Assembly (NCBI GenBank): GCA_003864455.1
Contig: BGZN01000003.1
Coordinates: forward strand, 25,484 to 89,483
DNA: 64,000 nucleotides
Origin: Candidatus Termititenax aidoneus
Lineage (GTDB): Bacteria > Margulisbacteria > Termititenacia > Termititenacales > Termititenacaceae
Direction of reading: 5' to 3'
The notes beneath the pieces are model-generated. The model saw nothing but the letters and a program-made list of their open reading frames with translations, had not been told where the DNA came from and did not search any database. How positions within the stretch are numbered: the stretch's first letter is position 1; each line of letters opens with the position of its first letter. The translations under genes and the position numbers were made by a program. Of this stretch, positions 3,690 through 28,217 are shown in pieces.

Positions 3690-3694
3690 TTTTT

Positions 3695-4916: not shown

Positions 4917-5255
4917 TTAGCCGGCGCGCAGCGCGCGCAAAAGCCGGAGCGAAATATTCCTTTTCTCAGGGTTGAGTTTGCGAAACTCAGTCAGGAGTTT
5001 TAACTCAGTCAAATTCTTTTTATGAGGTTTGTCAAAATCCTTGAAAAAATAGTCCAGCGGAACGCCGTAAAATTCTGCCAGCTTAAACAGAGTTTCTAGT
5101 TTGGGCGCACCTTTTTGGCCTTTTTCTAAATATAAATAATTGGGAAAAGCCATGTCCAGCCCCAAAGCAGCGTCCTGTATAGTCAGCTTTTGGCTGACCC
5201 GCAATTCCTTTAAAAGCTGGCCGATATGTGTTTTCAGTTGGCTTAGGTCTCCCAT
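4917..5255 (-). CDS. XRE-family helix-turn-helix transcriptional regulator
   Basis: N-terminal HTH_3-like segment (LKELRVSQKLTIQDAALGLDMAFPNYLYLEKGQKGAPKLETLFKLAEFYGVPLDYFF). Divergent from the tail-collar gene. Confidence 0.6.
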   Translation of the reverse strand: MGDLSQLKTHIGQLLKELRVSQKLTIQDAALGLDMAFPNYLYLEKGQKGAPKLETLFKLAEFYGVPLDYFFKDFDKPHKKNLTELKLLTEFRKLNPEKRNISLRLLRALRAG

Positions 5256-5400
5256 AAAATTTTCCGTTTCTTTTCAAAGTTTTATTCTGTGTAGTTTATG
5301 ATTATGTTGTCCAAAAATATATTTCTTATAATTAATAATACTATTGCTTATAGTTAATAATAGTGGTATAATAGGTATATCAAACACAGGGGGTATGTAT

Positions 5401-11609: not shown

Positions 11610-12908
11610 ATGAAAAAAATAATTTTAGCGATTTTCACAGTAATGCTGGCGCTGTCCATATTCGGCTGCGGCAAAACGCAGCAGGCGAGCGGTGGCGGTT
11701 CATCGAGCGGAGGAGGAGGTGGCGGTGGAAACACACCGCAGACTTTTTCGATCAGCGGTGAATCAGATTTGTTAAATGGATATGTTTCTGGATTTTCTGT
11801 TATGGCCGCTGATGATTTTTCGGTAACGCTCCATGACCTCTTGACCGGCGCGACGGTGAATGCCAACGTGAAAATAGAGGATGGCAAATATTCTGTTACC
11901 GGTCTGGATGCCGCTAAAGTTTACGAGGTGCGCCTAAGAAAAAATAGCGACGTGCAGAGTAATGTGGCCGCCAAGCCGCGCTTTTCCGATACGGCGACAG
12001 TTAATGTTAGTGAAAATACTACAACTTTTGCGAATAAGATTATAGAAAAGAAAGATGAGATAAAAGACGCGCTGACTGGCGCTAACGCGGCGGCGGGTAA
12101 GGTAAACGAATTGTTCGCTCTGGCCAAAGATAATGAAAGCAAACTCGTTGAATACGCAAGGCAGATAAAAAATTCTAAACAAGACAAGCTCACCGTGCTG
12201 GCCTGGGACACTAAAAACATTGACGGCAGCACAAGCGATTGGAACAAGAATTATACTGTCTTGTTTGACGCTGACCATCCCCTGTCTGACACCGACAACC
12301 GTCTCACATGGAGAGGTATAGGCAAGGCATATAAAGATTGTTTGGTAGTAAAGAACGTCAAAGTGGCTAGGGACAATGACAATCTTTATTTCTTGTGGGA
12401 GCAACAAGGAAATGGATTTTATACTGACGAGGAAAAAAAGGATAATAACAATATTTGGGATAATCGTGGAAAAAATACAGTAGAGTACATGATGGGAATT
12501 TACATTGCCGGCACGGGTTGGGATGCTGAGGACGAGACGCGTCCGCCATCGTATATGGAAACTCCTGTGCTCGCGGAAATGGGGATGAGTAATACAAAAA
12601 TACAAGACGAAGTCCGGTTTAGCGCTCAGATCTGGAGGAAAGAAGATCCGCACCACAACATCGTGATAAACGATAAAATGCAAGGCAAATTGAGCGGCGA
12701 TAAGAAATTTCTGGAAATAGCCGTGTCAATAAATGAAATCCAGGAACATTTGAGAGGCTATTTACTATCAGACTATGATGATGCTTATGTTATTGGCATC
12801 AAGGTTAAAGGTAATTATGAATGGGTTCCGGGGCCCAACGACGGCGAAGGTAGTATGATCGGGGGTAATTATAATTTTATAACCAATATGTTGTTAGTAA
12901 AGTTTTGA
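11610..12908 (+). CDS. Lipoprotein with a Gly/Ser-rich linker, 432 aa, function unknown
   Basis: RBS aaggagaaaag. Signal + lipobox MKKIILAIFTVMLALSIFGC followed by GGGSSSGGGGGGGN. The ORF-track N-terminal extension (11526) lacks an RBS. Confidence 0.65.
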   Translation: MKKIILAIFTVMLALSIFGCGKTQQASGGGSSSGGGGGGGNTPQTFSISGESDLLNGYVSGFSVMAADDFSVTLHDLLTGATVNANVKIEDGKYSVTGLDAAKVYEVRLRKNSDVQSNVAAKPRFSDTATVNVSENTTTFANKIIEKKDEIKDALTGANAAAGKVNELFALAKDNESKLVEYARQIKNSKQDKLTVLAWDTKNIDGSTSDWNKNYTVLFDADHPLSDTDNRLTWRGIGKAYKDCLVVKNVKVARDNDNLYFLWEQQGNGFYTDEEKKDNNNIWDNRGKNTVEYMMGIYIAGTGWDAEDETRPPSYMETPVLAEMGMSNTKIQDEVRFSAQIWRKEDPHHNIVINDKMQGKLSGDKKFLEIAVSINEIQEHLRGYLLSDYDDAYVIGIKVKGNYEWVPGPNDGEGSMIGGNYNFITNMLLVKF

Positions 12909-12945
12909 CGACAAAAGGGACAGGCACGCATCAGGATTAAGCAGG

Positions 12946-13254
12946 TTGATTGAAAACAATCTGGTCGGTACTAATGAACTGATCTTGACCGAATTATTGC
13001 CGGCTGTTTGGCATCAGAAAGAGCACAAATTGGCGGAATTGCTGAACGCTTTGCCAAAGTACCCTCTGCGCATTGATTGGGACGAGCTACGCTCCTGGCA
13101 AGCCCTCAATCTCAAAAAGGGTTTTAACAACATTGGCATTCCAGATTTATTGATCGCTCAAAATTGCTTGCAAAACCATTTGCAGATTTTCAGCCGCGAC
13201 AAACATTTTCGCTGGCTGGCCAAACATTTGCCGTTGGAGTTATACGCCGGTTGA
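12946..13254 (+). CDS. Possible PIN-domain (VapC-like) fragment, 102 aa, TTG start, no clear RBS; may be a gene remnant
   Basis: C-terminal GIPDLLIAQNCLQNHLQIFSRDKHF resembles the C-terminal acidic motif region of PIN domains. The N-terminal catalytic Asp region was not identified. Confidence 0.25.
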   Translation: MIENNLVGTNELILTELLPAVWHQKEHKLAELLNALPKYPLRIDWDELRSWQALNLKKGFNNIGIPDLLIAQNCLQNHLQIFSRDKHFRWLAKHLPLELYAG

Positions 13255-15061: not shown

Positions 15062-15916
15062 ATGACTGAAATATCCGCCGCTGTAGTAAAAGAATTGCGC
15101 GAGAAAACTTTTGCCGGCATGATGGACTGCAAAAAAGCTTTGCAGGAAAACAACGGTGATTTTGAAGCGGCCGTCAAGTGGCTGCGCGAAAAAGGACTGT
15201 CCACCGCTGCCAAGCGTTCAGACCGCGCGGCTTCGGAAGGCCTCATCGATGTGAAATTTAACGACGAGCGCAGCCTGGCCGCTTTGCTGGAGCTGAACAG
15301 TGAGACGGATTTTGTGGCGCGCAACGCTAAATTCCGTGCTCTGCTCAATCAACTGCTCGATCAAGTGCTGGCCAAACAGCCCAAAGATATCGCCGAGCTG
15401 GAAAGTCAGCCTTTTTTGGGCGACGAGTCGAAAAAAATCAATGAATTGATCACCGACGCTATTGCGGTGATCGGAGAAAACATCGTCGCGCGGCGTTTTG
15501 CTCTGTACAGCGTGCCGGCCGGCAATGTGCTGGAGAGTTACGTGCACAACGGGCGCATCGGCGTGCTGGTCGAACTGACCGGCGCGCAGGCGGACAGCGA
15601 GTTGGCCAAAAATATCGCCATGCATATCGCGGCGGCTAATCCGGCGCCGCAGTATTTGCAGCGCGCTGACGTGACCGCCGAGCATCTGGCCAGCGAACGC
15701 GAGATTTACAAAACGCAGATTTTGCAGGACGAGAAAAACGCCAAGAAGCCGGCCAATATTATTGAGAAAATAATTGACGGCAAGGTTAATAAATTTTATC
15801 AAGATGTTTGTCTGCTGGAGCAGGGCTATATCCGCGACCCGGACAAAACGATAAAAGATATTTTGCCAGAAGGCGTGTCGATAGTGCGCTTCACCCGTTT
15901 TGAGCTGGGCGCTTAG
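15062..15916 (+). CDS. tsf: Elongation factor Ts
   Basis: AAVVKELREKTFAGMMDCKKALQENNGDFEAAVKWLREKG is the conserved EF-Ts N-terminus. Immediately downstream of rpsB. Confidence 0.95.
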   Translation: MTEISAAVVKELREKTFAGMMDCKKALQENNGDFEAAVKWLREKGLSTAAKRSDRAASEGLIDVKFNDERSLAALLELNSETDFVARNAKFRALLNQLLDQVLAKQPKDIAELESQPFLGDESKKINELITDAIAVIGENIVARRFALYSVPAGNVLESYVHNGRIGVLVELTGAQADSELAKNIAMHIAAANPAPQYLQRADVTAEHLASEREIYKTQILQDEKNAKKPANIIEKIIDGKVNKFYQDVCLLEQGYIRDPDKTIKDILPEGVSIVRFTRFELGA

Positions 15917-15929: not shown

Positions 15930-16004
15930 TCCCCGATCGTCTAATTGGTAGGACGACAGATTCTGGCTCTGTTAATCGAGGTTCGACTCCTTGTCGGGGA
16001 ACCA
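15930..16004 (+). tRNA. tRNA-Gln (anticodon CUG), 75 nt including the encoded CCA
   Basis: Hand-folded cloverleaf: acceptor TCCCCGA/TCGGGGA, D-stem GTCT/GGAC, anticodon stem ACAGA/TCTGT with loop TTCTGGC (anticodon CTG), T-stem CGAGG/CCTTG with loop TTCGACT, discriminator A, then CCA. Confidence 0.8.
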
Positions 16005-17555
16005 ATCCACCCTAGTATCCAACCCCGTTGAATTTAGTCTTTGACGATTCACGGAGTCAATCGGCCTTATCTTAATCCGTACTAAAGAGTCTTTGCTGTT
16101 TTCTTGAGGATAGAGCCGTATTTCGTCAATTATATAGCCTAGCAGTTTTTCTTTATCGATAAAACTTAATTCGTCATACATCTCGTAAAATATCCTAAGG
16201 GTGTCTCTTAGGTCATTATCGGTGGCTTTTTCCTGTTCTTTTAAGGCAATCAATTCATCGAAGTTCGAGCTTTCTAGGCCATATTTGGCAATTTCTTGCT
16301 CATACTTGCGGATAAGGTCGGCTAAATCGGGGTCATTTTTCGATAACTTTTGTAACTTATTTTCTACCCCTATTTTTTTGTTTAATATCCCTTGTTTCTG
16401 GTTGCGTAATTCTTGTATTTCTTTGTTCTGCTGCTTTCGTGCGTCAACTAAAACTTTTTCGAAGGCTAGATTATCCTTAAATAAATTCTTTAACTCCTCG
16501 GCTAGATGTTTTTCAATCAATTCGCTGTTAATTCTTATTCTTTTCTTTTTATTATCTTTAATATATGTATGCACATAATAATTGGTGTTGTTTTCCTTGT
16601 TATAGCCCATCTGCTTTTCAGAATCATTGTAAAACAACAAATCACTCAATATTCCCCTAGAAGCAGCAGACCTTCTTAATTCCGGTTTAGTATTGTCATT
16701 AAATATCTCTTGGCACAGGTTAAATACAGACTCGTTGATAATCTGACAAGACGGATTCCAATTAACAATTTTTCCGTCATGTCTGGCTTTACCAATGTAA
16801 TAGGGATTGTTTAGGACATTTTCCACATTATCCCTTTTGAAAGTTCTGTCTTTATTTTTTAAGTTTTGCTTATTCAAAAAATCAGCCACTTTTTTAGCAC
16901 TTTTTAACTCGATATATTTATCAAAAAGTAATTCAACAATAGGCCGTTCATCTTCATTGATTACAAGTTTTTTTCCGTTTTGGTCATATCCAAGGGGGAC
17001 TCGTCCGCCTCTAAATTGTCCTTCCTCAATCATGCGGTTCATACCGGTTTTAGTTCTTTCCGTGATAAGTTCACGCTCATATTCCGCAAAAGTTAAGATG
17101 ATATTCATCATCATTCGTCCTGCTGCTGTAGCAGTAGAAAAATCTTGTGTTATAGAAACAAGCGATATATCTTTGTACTTCAAATAATCGTTTATAAACT
17201 TGTAAAAATCACTAATGCTTCTGGTCAATCTATCAAGTTTATATATGACAATACAATTTATTTTACCTGCTTCAATATCTCTAACCAGTCGCTCATATTC
17301 GGGTCTATCTAAATTGCTCCCTGGCTTCCCTTTTTCGGCATATATTTCAGTCAGCACCCATCGTTGTTTATCGTCTGTGTCGTTGCGTAATGATATATGC
17401 TTTTTACACAGCTCGATCTGATTGTCCACAGAATCATGCTCTTTTAGTTGGCCGTATTTATCTTTGCCTTGTTTTTGGTCGCTAAATCTAGCATAAATTC
17501 CACAGCGTAATATTTTCTGTTCCTCGGTTTGAATAACAGCATTATTATTTTTCAT
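15972..17555 (-). CDS. Large serine recombinase (integrase) of the element; its last 11 codons are encoded by tRNA-Gln sequence
   Basis: N-terminal resolvase catalytic domain (YARFSDQKQ...; IYKLDRLTRS), recombinase domain and a coiled-coil-rich C-terminus; 527 aa. The stop lies at 15972-15974, inside the tRNA. Confidence 0.85.
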   Translation of the reverse strand: MKNNNAVIQTEEQKILRCGIYARFSDQKQGKDKYGQLKEHDSVDNQIELCKKHISLRNDTDDKQRWVLTEIYAEKGKPGSNLDRPEYERLVRDIEAGKINCIVIYKLDRLTRSISDFYKFINDYLKYKDISLVSITQDFSTATAAGRMMMNIILTFAEYERELITERTKTGMNRMIEEGQFRGGRVPLGYDQNGKKLVINEDERPIVELLFDKYIELKSAKKVADFLNKQNLKNKDRTFKRDNVENVLNNPYYIGKARHDGKIVNWNPSCQIINESVFNLCQEIFNDNTKPELRRSAASRGILSDLLFYNDSEKQMGYNKENNTNYYVHTYIKDNKKKRIRINSELIEKHLAEELKNLFKDNLAFEKVLVDARKQQNKEIQELRNQKQGILNKKIGVENKLQKLSKNDPDLADLIRKYEQEIAKYGLESSNFDELIALKEQEKATDNDLRDTLRIFYEMYDELSFIDKEKLLGYIIDEIRLYPQENSKDSLVRIKIRPIDSVNRQRLNSTGLDTRVDWFPDKESNLD

Positions 17556-17648
17556 AATTATAGATACGCTCCTTTATATAAAGATTATTATTTAATCAAA
17601 CTTGGGGCAGAGATGGGTAAAACCCTCTCTGCCAGTTTCACTAAATCT

Positions 17649-18347
17649 TTAGGCTTTCGCTACTAAAGATTCCTGCGGTTCTGCAACCGTTGAAGTTTGT
17701 TCAGCAGTTGCGGTCAAGGTGTTTTGTAAGTCTCTTAATTCTTTAAGAGCTTCCTCGACTTTGGCAATAGCTTCGCTTAATTGGTTTGGGTTTTTGATAT
17801 TCTTTACAACAATATCTTTTTCCCATCTGTTAAGCGAACGGCTGTTCCTGTTTTTGCAATATTTTTTATATATTGCTTCCAGACCTAGGCTGTCCACTTC
17901 AGCCTTTTTGTCGGGATTCTTAGATAGAAAATCACCCACCTTAGCATATTTCGAGACCAGTGCCTCGGACTTGCTTATTGCGGTGGAGACTTGGGCTTGA
18001 GTAATATCTTTATTATCAAGCACGGTCAAAACCGCTTTAGCAAATTCCGAGGGCATCAGATTCTTTCTCTGACAGTTCTCGGTAAGTTGGGTTAAGATGG
18101 TCTCCACACCATCTTTAGTTTCTGTAACAATCACAGGTACAGTTTCTAAATTGGCTAACTTAGCCGCCTCAAACCGCCTATGACCACAGATAACTTTATA
18201 GCCATCCCCCTCTTTTCTGGCACAGATGGGCTGCATAACCCCATAGGATTGGATGCTTGCTTTCAAGCTGTCCAATTTCCCCATGTCGGCACTCCGGATG
18301 TTCGTGCCGTTTGTTAATTGCTCCATAACCATATTGATCACTGCCAT
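17649..18347 (-). CDS. ParB-like nuclease domain protein
   Basis: ParB/Srx motif region MQPICARKEGDGYKVICGHRRFEAAKLANL. Confidence 0.65.
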   Translation of the reverse strand: MAVINMVMEQLTNGTNIRSADMGKLDSLKASIQSYGVMQPICARKEGDGYKVICGHRRFEAAKLANLETVPVIVTETKDGVETILTQLTENCQRKNLMPSEFAKAVLTVLDNKDITQAQVSTAISKSEALVSKYAKVGDFLSKNPDKKAEVDSLGLEAIYKKYCKNRNSRSLNRWEKDIVVKNIKNPNQLSEAIAKVEEALKELRDLQNTLTATAEQTSTVAEPQESLVAKA

Positions 18348-18671
18348 AATTCTTTACCTTTCTGTACAATCATGTACAATTTTATTTGCCAATTATCTGA
18401 CTTTATATCCAGAGTATATTTTTAAGAGATTGGGCTTATTACTCCACCTGCCTTTCAAGCATTTGTGCAGAAAAGTAATTTGCCGTACTAGACCTTGGCG
18501 AGCCTAGCTTAGTTAAATGTTTTCTTGCACAACAAATTTTGAAAGGGGCGTTTTACTTCCGGCTCAAGCTGTGGTTGGTTGTATGGCCGTTATCATTTAT
18601 TTCGCCCTGTTGTTAAACCACAGGTTTGGCAATACTATCAAACTCGCTATTTCTTGTCAACAGATATTTTT

Positions 18672-19358
18672 TCAATTCAACAAACCCTTAATTTTTTTCT
18701 GTGCCGTACCTGCACTTCTAATAAAATAATTTGTATCGCTTTTCATTTTGTTTTTTAGTTCTGCTAAATTTTCTTTCTCTGCTCCTCGGCTTAATCCGCA
18801 TTGTGCCAGTAAGTAACTTGCCGTAAGTGTGTTTGTCAGATTGTCATTTGTTTGTGGTTCTAAATTTTTTGCCAGAAAAACAATCGCTTTTCTAAAATAC
18901 TCCTCGGTATCAAGTCTGTTATCACGGGGCAGTTCTTTATCGGTTTTTTCAGAGCCTTTTTGTAACAGGTTATCAGTTTCATAGAGTTTATCGGGATAGA
19001 TATAATCGTCTTGCAAACCGGCAAAGTCAGCGTAGATCGATGTGTTGCACAAAGGGAATGAATGATAATAAGCCAGCCTGCCACCGGAGTTACAATTACG
19101 GAAGTAGGTCAGCAAAGCCCCTGTACTGCCTGTCATTATTTTACCGCCCATCTCTTTGATTTGCATGTAAGAGCCAAAGAATACATTGTTTTTTATGTTG
19201 TGCTGTCGGCAGTAGATACTCAATAAGGCTTGGTTTAATACGCTGTAATTCTGTTCACTGGCCATATTGCGGTATAGAAATCCTTGATTGAGAAAATCCA
19301 AACCGTTATTTTCTACATATCCTAAAACATAGTCATTTATAATATTTTCAACACGCAT
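18672..19358 (-). CDS. ArdC-N-like (ssDNA-binding, DUF1738-like) protein
   Basis: Architecture and motifs resemble the N-terminal domain of the neighbouring ArdC-like protein (…YRNMASEQNYSVLNQALL…FFGSYMQIKEMGGKI). A weak call. Confidence 0.4.
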   Translation of the reverse strand: MRVENIINDYVLGYVENNGLDFLNQGFLYRNMASEQNYSVLNQALLSIYCRQHNIKNNVFFGSYMQIKEMGGKIMTGSTGALLTYFRNCNSGGRLAYYHSFPLCNTSIYADFAGLQDDYIYPDKLYETDNLLQKGSEKTDKELPRDNRLDTEEYFRKAIVFLAKNLEPQTNDNLTNTLTASYLLAQCGLSRGAEKENLAELKNKMKSDTNYFIRSAGTAQKKIKGLLN

Positions 19359-19596
19359 AAGATTACCCCTTTTTATTTGATGTAAAAGTTTCGTAACAAA
19401 ACTATTGAAAAATTAGCCCTCGCTTAAAGACACCACCCACCTTATTTTTGAATACGGTTTTTTCTAAAATGTGGAGCGTTATTTTTAAGAAAGGACTAAT
19501 TATTTATTCACTAAGATTTAGCGTTTGATTTTTTCTTGTAAGATTTTCCGCAGAAAATCCATCTCTTTTTGGCTTAGATTAGACTTGAGCAATAAT

Positions 19597-20484
19597 CTAT
19601 CTTTGTTCATGGCACACTTCCTTTCCTGCACCCTCATTTAGCTTTCGTCCAAAAATATAATCTGCCGCCTTGCTTGCCTTACTGCTAGCAGACACAAGGG
19701 CTTCTTTTTGATTTTTTAGAAAGTTAGCCCAGTTATTGATATAGGCTTGTGTATTGGTTTTGTTTATAGGCAAGCCTAACTCTTGCATAATAAAACTGCT
19801 AGCCATTTCCGCTATCAATTCCTCTTGGCTGTATGAATTTCTATCTTTATTAAGGCTTTCCAGAGGTCTATTTAATCTTTTTGCATTTCCCGTCCAGTGA
19901 GACAATTCGTGAAAAGTAACACCGTAGTATTCGTTAGTGTTTATAAATGTTTCGGGTTTTTGTATATAAATAGTGTCCTCACTTGGTATATAGTAATTGC
20001 CGGAAACAGATACAATAAGATTAGGGTTGTTTGCTTTTATAACTCCCTCGGCTTTTTCGATAGGGTTAAAATTATTGTGCTGTTTTTCGGGTAACTTCAT
20101 ATTGGTTTGCTCTATGTTAAAAACATTGTAATAGCGTAATATGGGTATCTCTTTTACTTCTTTTAGACCGTTTTTATTTGTTACTTCTTTTTCCGTGATT
20201 GTCCAGTAGATAACCGGCACGGATTTTTCACCGCAATTTACGCTACCGCCTGCGTTTTTAATCTGTAAGAAAGTACCCCAGATATTATGTTTATAGCTTT
20301 TTTTGTTAGCGATATAAGTTAAATATAAATAATTTATACCTCTATAAGTTTTATTAGATTGTAGATTTTTAGGCAGCTCCGCAGCACAGGGGTTTTGCCA
20401 CGGTATAACACCTAACTCCAATCCTTTAATCAGTTCCTCTACTATTGCCTGTTGCTTCTCTTGTGCGATTGTCATGGTCAGCAC
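19597..20484 (-). CDS. ArdC-like antirestriction protein (ssDNA-binding N-domain + zincin-like metalloprotease C-domain)
   Basis: N-terminal …IPWQNP…YRGINYLYL…TFLQIKNAGGSV. C-terminal HExxH zincin motif FHELSHWTGN. Confidence 0.7.
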   Translation of the reverse strand: MLTMTIAQEKQQAIVEELIKGLELGVIPWQNPCAAELPKNLQSNKTYRGINYLYLTYIANKKSYKHNIWGTFLQIKNAGGSVNCGEKSVPVIYWTITEKEVTNKNGLKEVKEIPILRYYNVFNIEQTNMKLPEKQHNNFNPIEKAEGVIKANNPNLIVSVSGNYYIPSEDTIYIQKPETFINTNEYYGVTFHELSHWTGNAKRLNRPLESLNKDRNSYSQEELIAEMASSFIMQELGLPINKTNTQAYINNWANFLKNQKEALVSASSKASKAADYIFGRKLNEGAGKEVCHEQR

Positions 20485-20586
20485 CGCCTTTCATTGGTTA
20501 GTTATCTGCCAACGACAGAGGACAACTCCGAAGTGCGGTGCAAATATTGAAAGGCGGTTATTGAAGACTATGCGGAAGTTTAGTAA

Positions 20587-20826
20587 CTAAAGATTAGCGG
20601 TGTGGTTACTTTCATCTTTAATATTTATATTATAAGTATGATGGTCTTTAGTTTTTACGGTTACTCGCCATAATGTTGCGTCTTTTAATTTCTTTCGCCA
20701 CCAGATTTTTTCAACAATTTCTTTGTTTCCGACAGTTTCAACTATCAGATTTTCTATGTTGTTTCGTAACTTTATGTTTGTTAATTCATTGTCTATATCT
20801 ATTATTTTTCCCATTTCACCAGCCAT
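20587..20826 (-). CDS. Hypothetical protein, 79 aa
   Basis: ORF with an upstream RBS inside the AT-rich element. No recognised domain. Confidence 0.4.
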   Translation of the reverse strand: MAGEMGKIIDIDNELTNIKLRNNIENLIVETVGNKEIVEKIWWRKKLKDATLWRVTVKTKDHHTYNINIKDESNHTANL

Positions 20827-20870
20827 ATATACGCTCCTAAAATATTTTTACCTTCTTTAGAGACTAAAGA

Positions 20871-21293
20871 TTAGTTATTTATTTTTTTTGTTTCTCTGAC
20901 TTTTTCTAATTTTCTTTTAGCGGCATACGCTTGCTTCAAAAATGAGACCGCTTCTTTGTTGGTCGGCTCTAGTTTGACTACTTCCGTAAAATCTTTTATT
21001 GCCTTATCAAAGTTTTTTGTTTGAGCATACGCACACCCTCGAAAGAGATAAGCCGGTGCAACGCTTTTGCCGAATTTAATCGCCTTAGTAAAATCCGCTA
21101 TGGCCTTGCTCCAATTCTTTAGCTCAAAATAAGCAAGCCCACGGCCAAAATATGCCGTTGAGTGATCCGGCTTTAATTTAATGTATTCAGAAAAACTTTC
21201 GATTGCCTTATCCCAGTTTTCTTTTTCAAGGTACATCTTCCCGGTACTTAGGTACGCTTTTTTAGCTTGCCCTTTTGTCGATTTTTTAATCAT
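20871..21293 (-). CDS. TPR-repeat protein, 140 aa
   Basis: Three TPR-like units (W-LG-Y-A-F-P pattern: AYFGRGLAYFELKNWSKAIADFTKAIKF…). Confidence 0.6.
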   Translation of the reverse strand: MIKKSTKGQAKKAYLSTGKMYLEKENWDKAIESFSEYIKLKPDHSTAYFGRGLAYFELKNWSKAIADFTKAIKFGKSVAPAYLFRGCAYAQTKNFDKAIKDFTEVVKLEPTNKEAVSFLKQAYAAKRKLEKVRETKKINN

Positions 21294-21697
21294 CGATATG
21301 CTTCAGGGTCATATCGTATTGGCTCAGTTTCAAAACCTTTAATGATTTCCATTTGCATATTCTCATTTATTTTTACAAGTCCCCATTTACCATTTTTCAT
21401 TAAGGAAAATTTTCCGGTTGTTTGGTATTCACTAAACCAAATGTTATCATACTCAAAATTAACAATAATTTTTCCTTGTTTACTGATAACTCCCCACTTA
21501 CCGTTATATATTGCAGGAAATAAACCATTGTGATACTCATAAATTCTGACTTTGTCAAAAATACGTTCGCTAATTTGCTTTCCATATTCATCAAAAACTT
21601 TCCATTTAGTACTACTTATTCCCACGGCAGTTAGCCCTTTGTATTCTTGAATTTGAGTTCCCTTATCGTACCTTATATTGAATTTTTCACTACTCAT
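21290..21697 (-). CDS. WG-repeat protein, 135 aa
   Basis: Repeated (N/K)GKWG(V/L)(I/V) motifs (YNGKWGVISKQGKIIV; KNGKWGLVKINEN). Confidence 0.6.
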   Translation of the reverse strand: MSSEKFNIRYDKGTQIQEYKGLTAVGISSTKWKVFDEYGKQISERIFDKVRIYEYHNGLFPAIYNGKWGVISKQGKIIVNFEYDNIWFSEYQTTGKFSLMKNGKWGLVKINENMQMEIIKGFETEPIRYDPEAYR

Positions 21698-21720
21698 ACT
21701 TCACTTCTCCCATAATTTCT

Positions 21721-21948
21721 TTAAAGATTGTCCAAATTCTCAATTTCAATTTTGCCTTTGTGTATAGCTTTATGGCATGGCTGACATACGGAAACAATAT
21801 TGTTTGGATGGGATAGGCCGCCTAAGCCACGAGGAATATAATGATGCCCTGCACAGTTACCTTGTCCGCAAATTTCACATTTGTTTCCGGCTAATATTCT
21901 GCCTTCTCTTTGTGCTTTTATATCAATATAAGTTCTTTTTTTTGACAT
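21721..21948 (-). CDS. HNH endonuclease, 75 aa
   Basis: CEICGQGNCAGHHYIPRGLGGLSHPNNIVSVCQPCHKAIH is a classic HNH (CxxC…HH…N…CxxCH). Confidence 0.7.
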   Translation of the reverse strand: MSKKRTYIDIKAQREGRILAGNKCEICGQGNCAGHHYIPRGLGGLSHPNNIVSVCQPCHKAIHKGKIEIENLDNL

Positions 21949-21966
21949 AAATACTCTTGCACCTAA

Positions 21967-22188
21967 TCAAAATGAAGATAACGTCACATCGTCATTAGTA
22001 ATTTCTACCTCTCTATCGCCATAAGTAATAATACATTCAGTATCGTCAATGCTTACCATTCCATCCTTTTCAAAAATTATTTTAAAAATTTCCACCTTGC
22101 CGTTGGAATGTTTAACGACAATTTTATCATCATAGACATTGAGAACCTCATCACCTTTCTTTAATATTTCCAAGGATATTTTTTTCAT
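21967..22188 (-). CDS. Hypothetical protein, 73 aa
   Basis: ORF in the element's minus-strand gene string. No recognised domain. Confidence 0.35.
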   Translation of the reverse strand: MKKISLEILKKGDEVLNVYDDKIVVKHSNGKVEIFKIIFEKDGMVSIDDTECIITYGDREVEITNDDVTLSSF

Positions 22189-22206
22189 GTTGTCTCCTTT
22201 AAGTTA

Positions 22207-22419
22207 TTATTTCCCTTGCCCTGGCAAGAGATTGCGAAAAATCTGTTCGATTACTTTGCCGCCATACACACCTGTTCTGACTCTCATATCGGATTTGTGT
22301 GTTTTTTTATAGTCTTTTAGTACTTTTTTGACTTTTGGCATCACACGCTTAACATCTTTTGTTTTACCCATTATATTAACTGTGGCCGCACTTACCTCAT
22401 CATTGCTCATACAACTCAT
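22207..22419 (-). CDS. Hypothetical basic protein, 70 aa
   Basis: ORF in the element. Lys-rich. No recognised domain. Confidence 0.35.
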   Translation of the reverse strand: MSCMSNDEVSAATVNIMGKTKDVKRVMPKVKKVLKDYKKTHKSDMRVRTGVYGGKVIEQIFRNLLPGQGK

Positions 22420-22581
22420 CCTCTCTTTATGTTGTTTTAGTCAACAGCTCTGCCAGTTAAACTACAAACTCAAAACCATTATCGTTTTATACAGTTTAGT
22501 TAGAATTATACATTTGTATAGCAATAAAAACAATATCCATTCAAAGATAAAATTAAATGTCTCTTATTTAAGGAGGCATTT

Positions 22582-22971
22582 ATGGAAAATAAAACCACAG
22601 TAGAAAAAAGGTTAAAAACGCTGATCTCAACCAAGCTTCAAGAAATCAGAGAAGCGGCAGGCGGTCAATCGCTTGAGAAAATGGCCGAACAATTAAATCT
22701 AAATTATACTGTCCTGTTTCATATTTATTCGGGCAAATATTTGCCCAGATTGACAACCCTTACCCAAATTTTAGATTTTTACAATCTGCCGATAGAGATA
22801 TTTTTCAAAGATTTAACAAACAAAGATAAGGCCACACTTGCCAAAAATGCAAGTCATGCCACGCTAATTAGCGATTTTGATAAACTCGACAAACCAATGC
22901 AGGCCTCTATCCTAAAAATAGTCCGCAAATTAAATCTAAAAGAGAAAAAGCACAGGTATAGCGGTAAATAA
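22582..22971 (+). CDS. XRE-family HTH regulator of the element
   Basis: HTH-like LQEIREAAGGQSLEKMAEQLNLNYTVLFHIYSGKYLP. RBS aaggagg. It is the only plus-strand gene in the element's interior. Confidence 0.6.
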   Translation: MENKTTVEKRLKTLISTKLQEIREAAGGQSLEKMAEQLNLNYTVLFHIYSGKYLPRLTTLTQILDFYNLPIEIFFKDLTNKDKATLAKNASHATLISDFDKLDKPMQASILKIVRKLNLKEKKHRYSGK

Positions 22972-23047
22972 TTCTAAAAAATCTGTAACGGTTAAGTATT
23001 AAAGTCGAAACAGCATAAGTTTAGTGACTAAAGATTAGCCGTTTTTT

Positions 23048-24004
23048 CTATTTCTTTGACTTTCTTTTTTCGGCTTTTGCCTGTTCTAAATATTCATGTG
23101 CCTGTTTGTTATTGGGATTTAGCTCCACTGTTTTAGCAAAATCTTCAATGGCTTTGTCAAAATCGCCTTTACTGGCATACGCACAACCCCGATAAAAATG
23201 TGCCTCATCATAATCCGGTTCTAAGTTTATTGCCTTTGTATAACTTCTTATTGCCTTAATCCAATCACCTTTTTGAAAATAAGCATATCCTCGATATGAA
23301 TATGCTTGGATAGCAAGTCCTTGTCTCTCACGACTAGGATCAGATTTAATTGCCTCGGTATAATCCTCTATGGCCTTATCCCAATTTTCCTGAGCAGCAT
23401 AGGCACGTCCTCTATGCAGATATGTCAATTCATCTCCCGAATATAATTCAAGTGCCTTGTCGTAGTCTTTAATAGCCTTGTCAATATTTCCCTTTTCAAA
23501 ATACGCAATACCTCGATTGCAATAAACCATGTAATCATCATGCGTATAATTTTTATTCATTTTAATTCTTTTAGTGTAATCCTTTATGGCGTTATCATAA
23601 TCTTCCATATCACTATACGCATTTCCTCGCATGAGATATGCAATTTCGTCATTGCTGTCTAGTTTTGTTGCTTTGGTATAGTCCTCTATGGCTTGATTAA
23701 GGTTGCCTTTTTTGGCATATGCTACGCCTCTATTACAATATGCTATTCCATAATTTTTATCCAGCTTAATTGCTTCTGTATAACTTTTAATCGCATTGTC
23801 CCAATCATTTTCTTCACTATAAGCACACCCTTTATTATAAAACTCTACCGCTTGTTCGTCAGTCGATATACTCCTATCCTTAATGCCTAGTCTTTTTTTG
23901 AGATTCTTATAATACCTTTCTGGATTTTCGCAATAATCCCTATAATTAGGATCATCAAATTCTTTGTATTTATCTATAATTTCTTTTAATTCCGATTCGC
24001 TCAT
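23048..24004 (-). CDS. TPR-repeat protein (about 8 TPR units), ~318 aa
   Basis: Repeated AYxxRGxAYxxxGxxDKAIxDYTxAIKL units. Start chosen at MSESELKE (24004) rather than the ORF-track 24064. Confidence 0.65.
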   Translation of the reverse strand: MSESELKEIIDKYKEFDDPNYRDYCENPERYYKNLKKRLGIKDRSISTDEQAVEFYNKGCAYSEENDWDNAIKSYTEAIKLDKNYGIAYCNRGVAYAKKGNLNQAIEDYTKATKLDSNDEIAYLMRGNAYSDMEDYDNAIKDYTKRIKMNKNYTHDDYMVYCNRGIAYFEKGNIDKAIKDYDKALELYSGDELTYLHRGRAYAAQENWDKAIEDYTEAIKSDPSRERQGLAIQAYSYRGYAYFQKGDWIKAIRSYTKAINLEPDYDEAHFYRGCAYASKGDFDKAIEDFAKTVELNPNNKQAHEYLEQAKAEKRKSKK

Positions 24005-24005
24005 A

Positions 24006-24431
24006 TTAGTTATTCCCCTTAGGTTTACGCTGCCAAAAAGCAAGCCGAGGCAAAAACAGTACAAATCTAAGCAACCAAGATTCTGGCCAAGGATAATTAG
24101 AAAATGGCTTTTTGTTTTTTATTCTTTTTTCTTCATCGTCTTGGCTATATATTTTGGTAATGGACAGAAAAAACATATTAGGAGTAAGTTTTCTTATTAA
24201 CCCATTAGAGGCAGAAACTGCACCGCAACAGAAATCAAGGAACGGTTTTTTATCTGCTGCGTCTAATTCTTTAGTGGATAATATCAGCCAACCTTGAATC
24301 TTTAATATTGTGCCTGCTTGATGCATAGAATCTGCATCTGTTTTTTGCGGTGTATATGTAATGTCAGACAAGCTGTCCCTTATTTGTCCCTCATCTAATA
24401 ACTCCGACCCAGTTTTTTTATTTTTCGCCAT
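24006..24431 (-). CDS. Hypothetical protein, 141 aa
   Basis: ORF in the element. No recognised domain. Confidence 0.35.
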   Translation of the reverse strand: MAKNKKTGSELLDEGQIRDSLSDITYTPQKTDADSMHQAGTILKIQGWLILSTKELDAADKKPFLDFCCGAVSASNGLIRKLTPNMFFLSITKIYSQDDEEKRIKNKKPFSNYPWPESWLLRFVLFLPRLAFWQRKPKGNN

Positions 24432-24661
24432 ATATGCTCCTAAAAATTAAGTATATCATATCCTATTGCTTAACAATAATATATATTATTTGTTCTGCAA
24501 TAAACTAAAATGCCAGTATCAAAATCAGGCAAAATTTTGTGTTTGGACTGCTAAAATATTTATGACAAATTACCATACGGAATTTCGTCACGAAACTTTA
24601 TTATTCAAGGCAGACTCATTGTATATTCTTTGATAATAGTTACCCCCATTTACAGATTATT

Positions 24662-25294
24662 TTAGTTAAACCAGTCTAATTCTGTTTTGCCTTTGTAACC
24701 CTTTTCCCAGATAAACCATGCGTAACAAATGGTGCTATTGGTAGGGAAAGTAACAAAATCACCATTTCTGGCACAATTCAGACGTGAGCTTGAGACCCAG
24801 ATTTTCTTGGGCGGATTTTCAGTAAAAATCTTTTTGCGTGTTTTGCTTTCCAGATACCTAATGGGCAAAAACAACGCTAGCTTGCGGTTACAATCAAGAA
24901 TTTCTAAGGCTTTCTTCATAAATTCATTAGCATATTTATACGGTGGATTGGTAATAATATCGCCATGCCATTTCGATATGTAATCCTGTTTGTCTGTAGG
25001 ACTTGCTAAAAAATCATAATGCTTGCCGTACCCGTAATTATATTTATCAGTAGCCAACTTTAGTATGCCCTGCTTTTTTAACACTTTCGCCATGTGTCCT
25101 TGACCACAGGCACATTCCCATACGTCAGAGAAGTTATCTAGTTCTAAAAGTAATTCGGTTGCCTTTGGCTCTGTGGCGTAAAAGTCATGCATCTCACGGT
25201 CATGCAAGGCAAGATTCCGTGAGCCAATGCTCATATGTACGCTGTGTTTATTGCCTGTCCAATCTTTTGGCTTTTGATTTTTCTTGCCAGTCAT
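24662..25294 (-). CDS. Orphan N6-adenine DNA methyltransferase, 210 aa
   Basis: SAM-binding motif I (DVWECACGQGHM) followed by the catalytic motif IV DIITNPPY. No adjacent restriction endonuclease gene. Confidence 0.75.
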   Translation of the reverse strand: MTGKKNQKPKDWTGNKHSVHMSIGSRNLALHDREMHDFYATEPKATELLLELDNFSDVWECACGQGHMAKVLKKQGILKLATDKYNYGYGKHYDFLASPTDKQDYISKWHGDIITNPPYKYANEFMKKALEILDCNRKLALFLPIRYLESKTRKKIFTENPPKKIWVSSSRLNCARNGDFVTFPTNSTICYAWFIWEKGYKGKTELDWFN

Positions 25295-25335
25295 CTATAC
25301 TTAATAAAAGTTTCGCAACTAAACTTCTTTATTAT

Positions 25336-26574
25336 TCAAGGCGGCCTAATGGCATACTCTTTGAGGTCAACCCCTATCATAGAGCTTGTATAATCTATCC
25401 AGTCTATCAATCCGGCAAAAGCAGACATAACAATTTCATATTTATTTATCAACTCATGCCTGAGTTTTGTATAAAGATTATCAGGCAAAAAATCGGCTAC
25501 TTTATTAAACAGGGCATATATGCGTTTTCTTTCCCTGCACTTAGCCGAAGTGTCATTTTTATCGGAAAACCTATCATTAAGATACTGACTTATATTTAGT
25601 GTGTTAATATCTAAAAGCAAGTTTATTTCTTTCCATGATAAATGTTTACTTAACCAATCCCAAGTAAAAGTATTATTCCACAGACTAGGGTAGGGTTTGG
25701 CCTTGACTGGCAAAAAGTCTTTTAATTCTTTAGTGTAAACTTTCGTAAATAAACTTTGTAAGTTCCGTTTGGAGAATAAACTTTCTGCTGTAAACTTTGA
25801 GCCGTGAATTTTGCCAAAACTCTTTATCCGTTTACTGCCTTTGATTCTCAACTCTGCCCTTAATAGATTTATATCGCCAATATCAAAGTCCTGTTTTTCT
25901 CTTAATTCTTTGGCTTTATCATAAACACATAACAAATAACCCCCTTTTTTACTTCTAATATATAAAGAGCCTTTGAAATACCGGATTTGATTAGCATGAT
26001 GTTTTAAGTTTTCCTCAAAGAATACATAATAATCAGGCGGTCGGTTAGGAAGCTCTACATTAAGGGCTATATCTATTCTTGATATTTTTATATCGCTTAA
26101 ATCGACAACAACCCCGTTCTCTGCTAGAAAATCCTTAAACATTTCCCAAAATTTCCGGTATTGCTCATTAGTAGGCAGGGCTATATTATTACTGTTAAAA
26201 CATTTAGGGATATTTACAGTAATAAAAAGATTGCCGCTCCCTTGGCTTAAATTAAAGTGTCCGTCATTAAGCCAAAAATCCTTACACCGCAAAAAACCAG
26301 TACGCCCATCGTCATATAAAAGAGGGATAACATTATTTTTATCTGCCGTATTGCATTTATACTTTGTTAAGCAGGACTGTTTGATCCTGTACTTCTCGTG
26401 CGGCAGATAAAAAACTACGCTATCTGTGCCTACTACATAATCAAGGTTGGCTAAATTTATAAAGTTAGACTGTTGCCAGGCAAGGTTATCAAGATCAGTA
26501 AACATAATAAAATCATCATCAAATAAATCTGCAATCAAAGTCGCCTTATTATTAGCCAACACTGCTATCCTCAA
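25336..26574 (-). CDS. Rep_trans-like rolling-circle replication initiator / relaxase-like nickase, 412 aa
   Basis: Size and motifs (…LLCVYDKAKELREK… candidate catalytic Tyr in a YDK context) resemble the Rep_trans family found on ICE/IME and RCR plasmids. A moderate call. Confidence 0.45.
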   Translation of the reverse strand: MRIAVLANNKATLIADLFDDDFIMFTDLDNLAWQQSNFINLANLDYVVGTDSVVFYLPHEKYRIKQSCLTKYKCNTADKNNVIPLLYDDGRTGFLRCKDFWLNDGHFNLSQGSGNLFITVNIPKCFNSNNIALPTNEQYRKFWEMFKDFLAENGVVVDLSDIKISRIDIALNVELPNRPPDYYVFFEENLKHHANQIRYFKGSLYIRSKKGGYLLCVYDKAKELREKQDFDIGDINLLRAELRIKGSKRIKSFGKIHGSKFTAESLFSKRNLQSLFTKVYTKELKDFLPVKAKPYPSLWNNTFTWDWLSKHLSWKEINLLLDINTLNISQYLNDRFSDKNDTSAKCRERKRIYALFNKVADFLPDNLYTKLRHELINKYEIVMSAFAGLIDWIDYTSSMIGVDLKEYAIRPP

Positions 26575-26611
26575 TTTTCTTTTATAAATTGTCTGTTATG
26601 CGTTCTTGCCG

Positions 26612-26761
26612 TCATTGTTTTTTGTCCTCATTATTATTTGCCATACTTAATCTCATAGCCCGTCTGCGTTTGGCTTCTTTTATTACATTGCGAGCAATAA
26701 TTTCATTTACGGCCGCTGTCCTTTCCTCTAGGGTTGCATTCATTATCCTTAATAGAAACAT
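26612..26761 (-). CDS. Small basic protein, 49 aa (MFLLRIMNATLEERTAAVNEIIARNVIKEAKRRRAMRLSMANNNEDKKQ); candidate RHH/Xis-like regulator; below the ORF-track cutoff
   Basis: RBS GGGAGGTG 8 nt before the ATG. Immediately upstream of the Rep_trans-like gene, and divergent from the XRE gene across a palindromic operator. Confidence 0.4.
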   Translation of the reverse strand: MFLLRIMNATLEERTAAVNEIIARNVIKEAKRRRAMRLSMANNNEDKKQ

Positions 26762-26782
26762 TACAGAATCACCTCCCGTATT

Positions 26783-26812
26783 AAGCGTATGCTAGAATTA
26801 TAGCATACGCTT
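26783..26812. promoter_or_regulatory. Perfect 12-bp inverted repeat AAGCGTATGCTA-gaatta-TAGCATACGCTT in the divergent promoter region
   Basis: Read directly. Lies between the small RHH-like gene (minus) and the XRE-family gene (plus). Confidence 0.6.
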
Positions 26813-26838
26813 GAAAAAGGTCAACGGCTAGTATATAA

Positions 26839-27420
26839 TTGTGTTCTATGGCGATAAAACAGATAAACCCCGAACAGGCTCAACATTTGAAAAACCTGTT
26901 AAAACAAAAACAGATTAGCCTTGAAAAAATGGGTAAGGCTTTAGGTGTTAGCTTTCAGCTTGTTCATCAATACACTACAGGCCGGTGCAATCCATCGCCA
27001 GAAACAATGGCGGAAATGGCAAAGGTCTTAAGTGTTCCTCTTTGTTATATGTATATTGATTGCACGCAAAAAGCCTTAGAAGTTATTAGCAATTATTTTC
27101 AACAGCATGGCTTTTTCGTCAAAAAAGAGGTAGCAAAAACCTATTCTTGCGACCTGCTTTGCTTAAGCCCCATGCAAAACATTATCATAGCGGCAAATGT
27201 TAAAAAAACTTCGACAAAGAAATTTTCGGACTCAGCATTAAATATTGATTTTATAGAGCAATCTCTTAGAAAGACATACAATATAAAAAACTGTGTTTTT
27301 CTAAAGGTTGAAATAACTCCCGAAAAAGTACACATTAACTATGATAAGAAGTTAGAACATTTGCCCAGTTTACCAAAGTTACTTAAAGCTCTCGACAGTT
27401 TGTCGATTGTCTGGCCTTAG
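26839..27420 (+). CDS. XRE-family HTH regulator with a C-terminal extension, 193 aa
   Basis: HTH-like LKQKQISLEKMGKALGVSFQLVHQYTTGRCNPSPETMAEMAKVL. Confidence 0.55.
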   Translation: MCSMAIKQINPEQAQHLKNLLKQKQISLEKMGKALGVSFQLVHQYTTGRCNPSPETMAEMAKVLSVPLCYMYIDCTQKALEVISNYFQQHGFFVKKEVAKTYSCDLLCLSPMQNIIIAANVKKTSTKKFSDSALNIDFIEQSLRKTYNIKNCVFLKVEITPEKVHINYDKKLEHLPSLPKLLKALDSLSIVWP

Positions 27421-27573
27421 ATTTCTAACTACTAATTTTTTTCTATGACCATAAGCCCACATATTATAATGTTTAATACACAACCCTTTTCCGTGGTGCG
27501 GCTCATTACAACCTAATATAGTACAAGTCTTAATATATGGGTTTGGGAATAGGCCTACCCAAATAACGCTCAT
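27379..27573 (-). CDS. Cys/His-rich small ORF, 64 aa, at the right end of the element; in frame with the recombinase across the inferred attP
   Basis: CTILGCNEPHHGKGLCIKHY motif. The minus-strand frame is open from the element boundary (27618) to this ATG and matches the recombinase frame relative to the 10-bp core. Confidence 0.4.
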   Translation of the reverse strand: MSVIWVGLFPNPYIKTCTILGCNEPHHGKGLCIKHYNMWAYGHRKKLVVRNLRPDNRQTVESFK

Positions 27574-27631
27574 GGTATAATTTGTCCTTGCTCCATTCTT
27601 TGTATTGTAGGGTGGAATGGGGAACCAAAGT

Positions 27632-27730
27632 TACTAAAAGTCCTCCTTGCACGTCGCTACGCTTGTTGGTCTCACTTAACTTCGGGCTTACGCCCTTGTT
27701 AAGCTCGACGCGGGTAACCAAAGTGTTATA
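27632..27730 (-). repeat. Single diverged copy of the 104-bp repeat unit also found in tandem at 37032-37289
   Basis: Minus-strand read …GTCGAGCTTAACAAG[GGCGTAAGCCCG]AAGTTAAGTGAGACCAACAAGCGTAGCGACGTG… versus repeat unit …GTCGAGCTTAACAAG[CGAAGCG]AAGTTAAGCGAGACCCACAAGCACGCGAAGCGGGCGACGTG…. Confidence 0.6.
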
Positions 27731-27899
27731 CTTTAGGCTATGCGAAAGACGAAGCCTAAAAAACTCAAAGCGCGCGACGAAATTTTGCTGCGTCATATCA
27801 CTACCGGCAAGATCGGCTGCGGACCGCACAAAAATAAAATAAAATACAGCCGCCAACGCAGCAAACTCGAAACTAAAAATACCGCCGTGGAGGAACAAA

Positions 27900-28217
27900 A
27901 TGCCAAAACTTAAATTTACGCAGAACAGCAAAACTTACGAAGCGTGCGGCACGGATTTTCAAATACGCGTTTGGCAGGAATTGCGCAAGATCCCCAGAGG
28001 GCAAGTTATTACTTACGCGGAATTGGCGCGGCGCGCAGGCCGCCCGCGCTCCGCGCGGGCCGCGGCGAACGCCTGCGGCGCCAATCCGCTGCCGGTCATA
28101 GTTCCCTGTCACCGCGTTATCCGTGGCGACGGAGGTTTGGGCGGATACTCAGGAGTCGGCGGCGTGCGGAGAAAACGCGAATTGCTGCGCAAAGAGGGTT
28201 ATATTTTACTGGCTTAA
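27900..28217 (+). CDS. MGMT-family protein (O6-alkylguanine-DNA alkyltransferase DNA-binding domain only, YbaZ-like), 105 aa
   Basis: Active-site motif PCHRVI and an HTH (TYAELARRAG) are present. The N-terminal Ada/Ogt domain is absent. Confidence 0.8.
   Translation: MPKLKFTQNSKTYEACGTDFQIRVWQELRKIPRGQVITYAELARRAGRPRSARAAANACGANPLPVIVPCHRVIRGDGGLGGYSGVGGVRRKRELLRKEGYILLA

Follow-up and report, generated by a model that had tools for sequence, protein, structure and literature searches.

A stretch of 64,000 nucleotides from the genome of Candidatus Termititenax aidoneus (contig BGZN01000003.1, positions 25,484 to 89,483; hereafter the window, in whose numbering all positions are given) contains a low-GC island of 11.6 kb inserted at a tRNA-Gln gene. 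The window holds an apparently intact copy of this island, which we describe as an integrative rolling-circle island – probably mobilizable, and of a kind already known. The island is bounded by perfect attachment-site repeats and encodes a large serine recombinase, a rolling-circle initiator (Rep), and anti-restriction cargo that includes a full-length ArdC protein and an orphan DNA methyltransferase. We hold with moderate confidence that it is an apparently intact, self-integrating and non-viral element mobilized by conjugation, i.e. an integrative mobilizable element (IME) in which Rep serves as the relaxase.

Margulisbacteria of the genus Termititenax are uncultured ectosymbionts of termite-gut protists. 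A full-text literature search for Termititenax returned seven papers, none of which carries the name in title or abstract, and an apparently intact, self-integrating element gives a tangible starting point for studying how genes move in this lineage. Current concepts are unchanged by it, as it is an element of known kind in an under-explored phylum. An initial sequence-only reading of the window had proposed an integrative element with anti-restriction cargo, and this description is borne out by the intact recombinase, the perfect att repeats, the full-length ArdC and the orphan methyltransferase described below.

Results

An integrated island at a tRNA-Gln gene

The island occupies positions 16006-27628 when one copy of its 10-bp terminal repeat is counted; the sequence-only reading had placed it at 16006-27618, and the island is real, with its end moved to 27628 by that count. 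GC content is 0.34-0.39 over 16001-28000 compared with 0.51 in the left flank and 0.44-0.53 in the right flank, and the sign of the GC skew flips at the island. The flanks look chromosomal, with tsf (encoding EF-Ts; 15062-15916) and the tRNA-Gln(CTG) gene on the left, and on the right an MGMT-type DNA-binding-domain gene (27900-28217) followed by an AAA_16/TPR gene. Eighteen open reading frames (ORFs) cover approximately 87% of the island with no obvious pseudogenes, and all except two XRE genes lie on the minus strand.

The integration target is the tRNA-Gln(CTG) gene itself (15930-16004, plus strand; found by ARAGORN and matching the Rfam tRNA model with 58.6 bits). The attL core, a 10-bp direct repeat GGGGAACCAA at 15996-16005, is identical to the attR core GGGGAACCAA at 27619-27628. 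It is made up of the final 9 nt of the tRNA and one further base, and the tRNA therefore stays intact, with a 3′ end restored from the core copy that the element brings. Bordering the repeats on the inside are two arms – TCCACCCTA on the left (16006-16014) and TAGGGTGGA on the right (27608-27616) – that form a perfect 9-bp inverted repeat and pair around the core in the reconstructed attP, which is therefore an imperfect palindrome, as is expected for a serine-integrase site. The predicted junctions are ...TTGTAGGGTGGAATGGGGAACCAATCCACCCTAGTATCC... for attP and ...CTTGTCGGGGAACCAAAGTTACTAAAAG... for attB.

All island ORFs were searched for Pfam and PHROG protein families at the sensitivity of hidden Markov models (HMMs). 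The ORF at 15972-17555 (minus strand) encodes a large serine recombinase of 527 aa, with Pfam Resolvase (105 bits) and Recombinase (51 bits) domains, a match to the phrog_95 integrases (1.3e-85), and a YARFS catalytic-serine motif. Its closest homologues are 35% identical and approximately 500-530 aa long, and a query of IMG/VR found no relative. The recombinase ORF crosses attL so that its last eight codons are the antisense strand of the tRNA. The island thus has the integration and excision module and the att repeats that characterize IMEs.

In the reconstructed attP circle the recombinase ORF reads in frame and without a stop into a 64-aa ORF with a Cys/His motif at the right end of the island (27379-27573, minus strand; phrog_5351 N-terminal motif, 1.6e-7); translated across the junction, the product has 599 aa. 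We considered a functional attP-spanning recombinase of this length and treat the read-through as probably coincidental, because the homologues measure only about 500-530 aa and the extension has no counterpart in any of them.

A 17-nt sequence at the attR junction, ACCAAAGTTACTNAAAG, which spans half of the core and the chromosomal flank (27624-27640), occurs a second time at 27372-27388. This second copy is 252 nt into the element, where the gene for the regulator XRE193 has its 3′ end. No such pair is expected by chance, and the internal copy could be a pseudo-att site or the trace of an earlier event.

The same locus in related genomes

The 25-nt 3′ half of the tRNA was found in two other Margulisbacteria metagenome-assembled genomes, L006 (JAISEH010000108.1) and L007 (JAIRZV010000069.1). 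L006 shows approximately 92-93% identity to the window across the tsf-tRNA flank and 89% across the right flank, and the island is absent; between the flanks is only a gene for a 288-aa Bro-N-domain protein (complement of 3287-4150). The 104 nt at 27629-27732 of the window have no counterpart in L006. In L007 the tRNA is followed by the junction GGGGAACCA|ATCCACCCT, as in the window, and then by a decayed recombinase related to the one here, now a fragment of 118 aa; nucleotide identity is 67% across the first 675 nt. The recombinase tail RVDWFP, which is encoded by the inverted arm and the core, is kept in L007.

The second island at this locus, at 2100-6753 of L007, has different cargo, including an 824-aa ResIII/DEAD/Helicase_C_2 protein that may be a defence gene. 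The shared junction and related recombinase in L007, together with the absence of the island from L006, indicate that this recombinase lineage targets tRNA-Gln and that the locus is a variable hotspot. At the level of sequence comparison, mobility at the locus is supported by the island-free L006 and by the L007 recombinase remnant at the same junction. L007 also has approximately 1.5 kb inserted between tsf and the tRNA, with putative NfeD-like and band-7-like genes recognized from their translations.

A rolling-circle initiator with few relatives

Rep is encoded at 25336-26574 (minus strand), and its sequence is that of NO1_0347, annotated as a hypothetical protein on a 119-kb contig of Candidatus Termititenax aidoneus. 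It matches Pfam Phage_CRI with 26.1 bits, over the cut-off of 21.7, and Rep_trans (PF02486) with 27.6 bits, under the gathering cut-off of 29.6. The Rep_trans (TATA-binding-protein-like) fold was confirmed, with an additional helical C-terminal domain of approximately 160 aa. An alignment of 40 family members shows four invariant residues, Y182, Y218, K220 and E241, with the conserved, putative catalytic tyrosine in the motif VY218DK. We conclude that Rep is a predicted catalytically intact rolling-circle nickase of the Rep_trans/gpII superfamily.

By sequence, Rep is a near-orphan. We found no match by tblastn in 72,556 plasmids (PLSDB) or 50,697 GenBank phages, none in a sequence search of the PDB, and only Rep itself in a word-indexed protein search; its named BFVD matches are Inoviridae G2P proteins. 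A profile built from the 40 family sequences retrieved five proteins, and a pairwise-alignment search for Rep loci confirmed none in genomes or IMG/VR. When 1.84 billion representative proteins were scanned exhaustively with HMMER, 90 matches were obtained, one of which (P0122) is 33% identical to Rep while the others are distant and approximately 340-350 aa long.

These relatives occur in three settings, and no virion genes are present in any of the neighbourhoods examined. Distant relatives (P0212; contigs L001-L004) are encoded on contigs of approximately 3.2 kb from several samples with six co-directional genes, none of which matches a structural protein and among which no mobilization family was detected; the samples differ by a circular permutation of the gene order, suggesting that these are small circular replicons. 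Of two closer relatives, P0125 adjoins a tyrosine integrase and P0126 sits in a decayed chromosomal island. No non-coding k-mers or motifs are common to the island and the contigs of Rep relatives. The two closest relatives do share with the island a small ORF upstream of rep, of 50-57 aa in the relatives and 49 aa here (u49; 26612-26761, minus strand; no family match).

No virion or conjugation genes detected

The 18 ORFs contain no structural, packaging or lysis families of PHROG or Pfam, including the terminase, portal, capsid and tail families that define a tailed prophage. None encodes a transmembrane segment, the maximum Kyte-Doolittle mean over 19 residues being 1.18, and no member of the pI/Zot family of morphogenesis ATPases – which, with small transmembrane coat proteins, would mark an inovirus prophage – was found with Pfam, despite the gpII-like Rep. 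The lack of both a hydrophobic stretch and a pI/Zot match makes it less likely that the island encodes inovirus coat proteins, holins or parts of a mating pore. The primase-replicase and the packaging and capsid-redirection families (terS, cpm, sis) of phage-inducible chromosomal islands (PICIs) and other satellites were likewise not found, the replication protein being a rolling-circle replication (RCR) initiator. The sequence-only reading had described the element as not a prophage, and this stands: HMM searches returned no phage structural homologue among the ORFs that it had left unassigned. Six small ORFs are without an assignment after these searches.

No VirB4-type ATPase, coupling protein or mating-pore protein was found among the 18 ORFs, and at 11.6 kb the island is too small for an integrative and conjugative element (ICE). 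The lack of a complete mating pore, with no family of the type IV secretion system (T4SS) or its coupling protein (T4CP), is as expected for an IME.

Anti-restriction and establishment genes

The sequence-only reading had identified two ArdC-like genes, one with an intact HExxH motif, and both were recovered. The complete ArdC (19597-20484, minus strand) matches phrog_7245 (1e-65) and the structures PDB 6I89/6SNA (2e-36), and has a single-stranded DNA (ssDNA)-binding N domain and a zincin metalloprotease domain with the HELSH (HExxH) motif, both Pfam domains (ArdcN and MPTase-PolyVal) being over cut-off. The other is a 228-aa protein with an ArdC N domain only (18672-19358, minus strand; Pfam ArdcN 29.8 bits, cut-off 22.6), which has no metalloprotease motif and is 27% identical to the ArdC N domain. 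ArdC relatives are found in 3142 plasmid records, 1753 of them predicted to be conjugative, compared with 56 phage records.

The orphan DNA methyltransferase (24662-25294, minus strand) matches phrog_799 (4e-55) and has no Pfam match; motif I (ECACGQG) and motif IV (NPPY) were read from the sequence. From the NPPY motif only, we infer that the target is N6-adenine. Pfam and PADLOC show no restriction-enzyme family nearby, the neighbours being rep and a 141-aa ORF, so that the earlier description of an adenine methyltransferase with no cognate restriction enzyme holds. The gene is bracketed by a duplication of approximately 55 nt (about 80% identity; 24583-24640 and 25305-25364) of the last rep codons and a downstream hairpin, an arrangement suggesting that the methyltransferase was acquired as a cassette behind rep. 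A report on conjugative plasmids lists orphan methyltransferases among the families enriched in their leading regions (PMC11541004).

The orphan ParB (17649-18347, minus strand) matches Pfam ParB_N and TIGR00180 (ParB/RepB/Spo0J partition; 90.8 bits, cut-off 58.45). It has an N-terminal domain of the CTP-binding type, a GHRRFEA (GxRR) box and a helix-turn-helix (HTH). By its domain layout it is a ParB of the partition CTPase/HTH type; the sequence-only reading was correct in calling it ParB-like, and nothing marks it as the nuclease also proposed. The island has no ParA, and the ParB query in IMG/VR returned nothing informative. The leading region of the F plasmid encodes an orphan ParB-like protein, YfjB/HerB, that is zygotically induced (PMC13370423).

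Regulators and non-coding sites

The two plus-strand genes encode XRE-type regulators. XRE193 (193 aa; 26839-27420) has a Pfam HTH_3 domain (34.7 bits) and an extra C-terminal domain of unknown type, and is transcribed divergently from rep; its match to the RstR family is weak, at 29 bits against a cut-off of 80, a generic-HTH level. XRE129 (129 aa; 22582-22971) matches HTH_3 with 23.7 bits against a cut-off of 23, and is transcribed divergently from the gene string of cargo, ArdC, ParB and recombinase. The sequence-only reading had counted three regulators of XRE or ribbon-helix-helix type around a palindromic operator. Two are XRE proteins, the supposed ribbon-helix-helix protein is the 49-aa u49, which finds no family support, and the palindrome is perfect and is associated with one of the two XRE genes. 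It consists of two 12-bp arms separated by 6 nt, AAGCGTATGCTA-N6-TAGCATACGCTT (26783-26812), and lies on back-to-back divergent promoters, each with 11 of the 12 consensus positions matched. As a candidate operator, it would belong to a switch between the rep operon and XRE193.

We examined an inverted repeat flanking XRE129 (22490-22509 and 22968-22987; 17 of 20 positions complementary) as a possible invertible switch and rejected it, as it is one of 39 such pairs, within the number expected by chance in AT-rich DNA.

Upstream of parB is a non-coding leader of approximately 180 nt (18363-18540, minus strand; identified by blastn and alignment with L007) that contains TGTACA-N4-TGTACA. It is about 70% conserved at 3134-3330 of L007, in an otherwise different island at the same tRNA, where it is inverted relative to the recombinase remnant. 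A promoter scan gives a candidate promoter upstream of the leader at 18660-18632. The leader is possibly a cis-acting site, either an operator or an origin or transfer origin (oriT). An Rfam scan of non-coding RNAs identified the tRNA only.

Accessory cargo

The HNH, WG-repeat and two TPR proteins noted in the sequence-only reading were all recovered with Pfam. A block of six minus-strand genes at 20587-22419 contains u79 (20587-20826), TPR140 (20871-21293), a WG-repeat protein (21290-21697), a 75-aa HNH protein (21721-21948), u73 (21967-22188) and u70 (22207-22419). Further right on the same strand are TPR318 (23048-24064; the likely start is the ATG at 24004, giving 318 aa), whose C-terminal part is paralogous to TPR140 (48% identity; BLASTP 4e-35), and the 141-aa protein u141 (24006-24431), which has an AGGAG ribosome-binding site and a stop codon that overlaps the TPR318 start. 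The single family match of u141 is a weak one to SepF under the cut-off, and its single-sequence AlphaFold2 model was unusable (predicted local distance difference test score of 44.9). PADLOC analysis of the TPR, WG, HNH and small-ORF genes gave generic TPR and HNH matches and no specific defence system, and no gene in the block matches a structural PHROG.

A 21-nt hairpin motif, AGTTTAGTNACTAAAGATTAG, occurs three times (20577-20597, 20854-20874 and 23018-23038) and nowhere else in the 64 kb. Each copy is directly 3′ of a cargo gene – u79, TPR140 and TPR318, respectively – and the motif may be a terminator or a cassette-boundary repeat.

Discussion

A proposed model of conjugative mobilization

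The genes and sites of the island are consistent with a life cycle in which, on derepression, the recombinase would excise it as a circle and Rep would nick an origin in the circle to start rolling-circle replication. XRE193 would repress an operon of u49, rep, the methyltransferase, u141 and TPR via the 12-6-12 palindrome, and XRE129 would control the string u70-u73-HNH-WG-TPR140-u79-ArdC-ArdcN, with parB and the recombinase expressed from the further promoter near 18660. The displaced single strand would leave through the mating pore of a co-resident conjugative element, with Rep doubling as relaxase in the manner of the MOBT and RCR-type relaxases of streptococcal IMEs. On entry, ArdC (through ssDNA binding and its metalloprotease), the orphan adenine methyltransferase and possibly the orphan ParB would protect and establish the DNA in a restricting host, and the recombinase would insert the element into tRNA-Gln of the new cell. 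The TPR, WG-repeat, HNH and small proteins would be accessory cargo.

By analogy, it is in favour of mobilization that an RCR-type nickase is the only DNA-processing enzyme of the element, as the IME literature describes. The self-contained integration module and the lack of a mating pore point the same way, as do the R388-like ArdC with its mostly plasmid-borne relatives and the leading-region reports on orphan methyltransferases and an orphan ParB-like protein. Of 144 streptococcal IMEs, 118 have putative relaxases with a relationship to RCR initiators, those of phage type among them (PMC5704250), and the MOBT proteins of ICEBs1 and Tn916 serve in both transfer and replication (PMC5704250, PMC6499999).

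Several observations weigh against this interpretation. Family searches identified no canonical relaxase (MOB family), coupling protein or T4SS gene in any island ORF, and no oriT or nick site was identified in the island; the integration module supports the first half of the earlier term integrative mobilizable element, and the second half is a prediction. When three long intergenic regions were folded as ssDNA, the z-scores ranged from -0.8 to -1.3 and none was significant. The analysis covered the 64-kb window, and the genome has no known helper element. Metagenome contigs contained no match to the reconstructed 28-nt empty attB, metagenomes yielded no excised circle, and L006 carries the Bro-N gene rather than a clean empty site. 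The MOBT relaxase RelSt3 carries an N-terminal HTH domain, and none was detected in Rep. Phage_CRI matches 24 of the 40 Rep-family members and Rep_trans eight, and by these profile matches the family appears closer to inovirus gpII (Phage_CRI) than to Rep_trans/MOBT; the name Rep_trans-like initiator in the sequence-only reading is appropriate for the fold, less so for the family given the sub-threshold score. Of all ArdC matches, the best comes from a tailed phage, where its neighbour is a KorB-domain gene, and the methyltransferase family is represented in 409 phage records and 30 plasmid records. The cargo is therefore not uniformly plasmid-like, as the methyltransferase family is mainly from phages and the ArdC relatives are mainly from plasmids.

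Alternative explanations

It is conceivable, and to our mind rather unlikely, that the island is a rolling-circle plasmid or island that integrates, and that uses the recombinase to excise and Rep to replicate, but lacks any transfer function of its own. Its spread would be passive, through transformation, vesicles or generalised transduction, or would not occur, with ArdC, the methyltransferase and ParB as general establishment and maintenance genes. The integration module, Rep fold, regulators and cargo can all be explained without conjugation, the failure to detect a mobilization gene or oriT fits, and the distant Rep relatives are on small, apparently circular contigs with no detected mobilization family. 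However, ArdC is known to protect incoming conjugative ssDNA and its relatives are overwhelmingly in plasmids, more than half of them conjugative, and RCR initiators have acted as relaxases in ICEBs1-mediated mobilization, according to work cited in PMC5704250.

A phage satellite, induced and packaged by a filamentous or tailed (PICI-like) helper phage and using the small ORFs and HNH for hijacking or packaging, is a quite improbable explanation. Small HNH proteins do accompany cos-type packaging, the Rep family is Phage_CRI-like with Inoviridae G2P among its named matches, and a gpII-type Rep with a divergent XRE repressor – itself a weak match to RstR – is the arrangement of CTXphi RS1/RS2. 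The size, the layout of recombinase, divergent regulators and replication module, and the phage-biased methyltransferase family are also satellite-like. Against this, no terminase small subunit, capsid-remodelling protein, coat protein, Zot-like ATPase, primase family or transmembrane protein was found, neither IMG/VR nor GenBank phages gave a Rep relative and IMG/VR gave no recombinase relative, and the RstR match does not exceed what a generic HTH would produce. We place little credence in a further variant in which the island is a satellite of a filamentous (ssDNA) phage or travels by some other route, and/or the state of integration switches the recombinase C-terminus – via the 599-aa read-through – to control directionality or stability; such a switch, if true, would parallel the integration-dependent immunity of some mycobacteriophages. 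Hardly credible is the proposal that the island is what is left of a prophage or other element after decay and loss of mobility. In L007 the sister island has indeed decayed, its recombinase now being a fragment, and the 64-aa ORF may once have been part of a longer gene of the HNH type, but the recombinase here has both its full length and its catalytic motif, the 10-bp repeats and 9-bp arms are perfect, Rep keeps all of the family-invariant residues, ArdC keeps HExxH, and the coding density is high with no obvious pseudogenes. Degradation, which the sequence-only reading had named as grounds for abandoning its proposal, was looked for and is not evident.

Comparison with known systems

The conjugatively mobilized element that we favour has a close parallel in the streptococcal IMEs with RCR-type putative relaxases (PMC5357655, PMC5704250), whose hosts are Firmicutes rather than Margulisbacteria. 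It differs from them in that Rep is of a divergent gpII/Phage_CRI-like branch under the Rep_trans cut-off, no TcpA/FtsK-type coupling protein is encoded in the island, and the serine recombinase targets and restores a tRNA 3′ end, whereas serine-recombinase IMEs have been reviewed as inserting within genes and disrupting them (PMC5704250). The MOBT relaxases of ICEBs1 (NicK), Tn916 (Orf20) and ICESt3 (RelSt3) are dual replication and transfer nickases of integrated elements, and share with Rep the Rep_trans fold and a conserved Tyr-x-Lys motif (PMC6499999). Unlike them, Rep scores under the Rep_trans cut-off (27.6 against 29.6), has no detectable N-terminal HTH and has the helical C-terminal domain of about 160 aa, and unlike the MOBT elements the island has no T4SS or coupling protein of its own.

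Tn4451-like IMEs of Clostridia also use a large serine recombinase (TndX) as the sole integration and excision enzyme at a very short crossover repeat. Tn4451 differs in having a canonical Mob relaxase and oriT (RSA) and a different target preference, and the recombinase here is unrelated to TndX beyond family level, its best homologues anywhere being those at 35% identity. The ArdC of plasmid R388 (IncW; PDB 6I89/6SNA) matches over its full length, with the same ArdcN and HExxH zincin architecture; unlike R388 ArdC, the gene here is in an integrated island beside a second, ArdC-N-only protein, and its anti-restriction role is predicted. The best matches in the plasmid collection, which are not R388 itself, are only about 35-40% identical. 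In Vibrio CTXphi RS2/RS1, rstR is divergent from rstA, and the island likewise has, in an integrated state, an XRE-type repressor gene divergent from a gpII-superfamily initiator; unlike RS2/RS1 it has no RstB/RstC, coat or Zot genes and no XerCD/dif integration, for which a serine recombinase substitutes.

With this island, elements that combine a serine recombinase with a gpII/Rep_trans-fold initiator and ArdC reach beyond the Firmicutes, and it marks the tRNA-Gln 3′ end as a recombinase-specific hotspot at which cargo changes among related genomes. It is also a candidate backbone for vectors, as it brings together a serine integrase whose attB in tRNA-Gln is defined, a small Rep and a simple switch of XRE regulator and operator.

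Other features of the window

GC content also dips locally outside the island, to 0.423 (5001-6000), 0.417 (12001-13000) and 0.355 (50001-51000). Three consecutive giant ORFs of 2644, 1566 and 3009 aa are present on the plus strand at 37337-59040, and may encode adhesins or surface proteins of the ectosymbiont.

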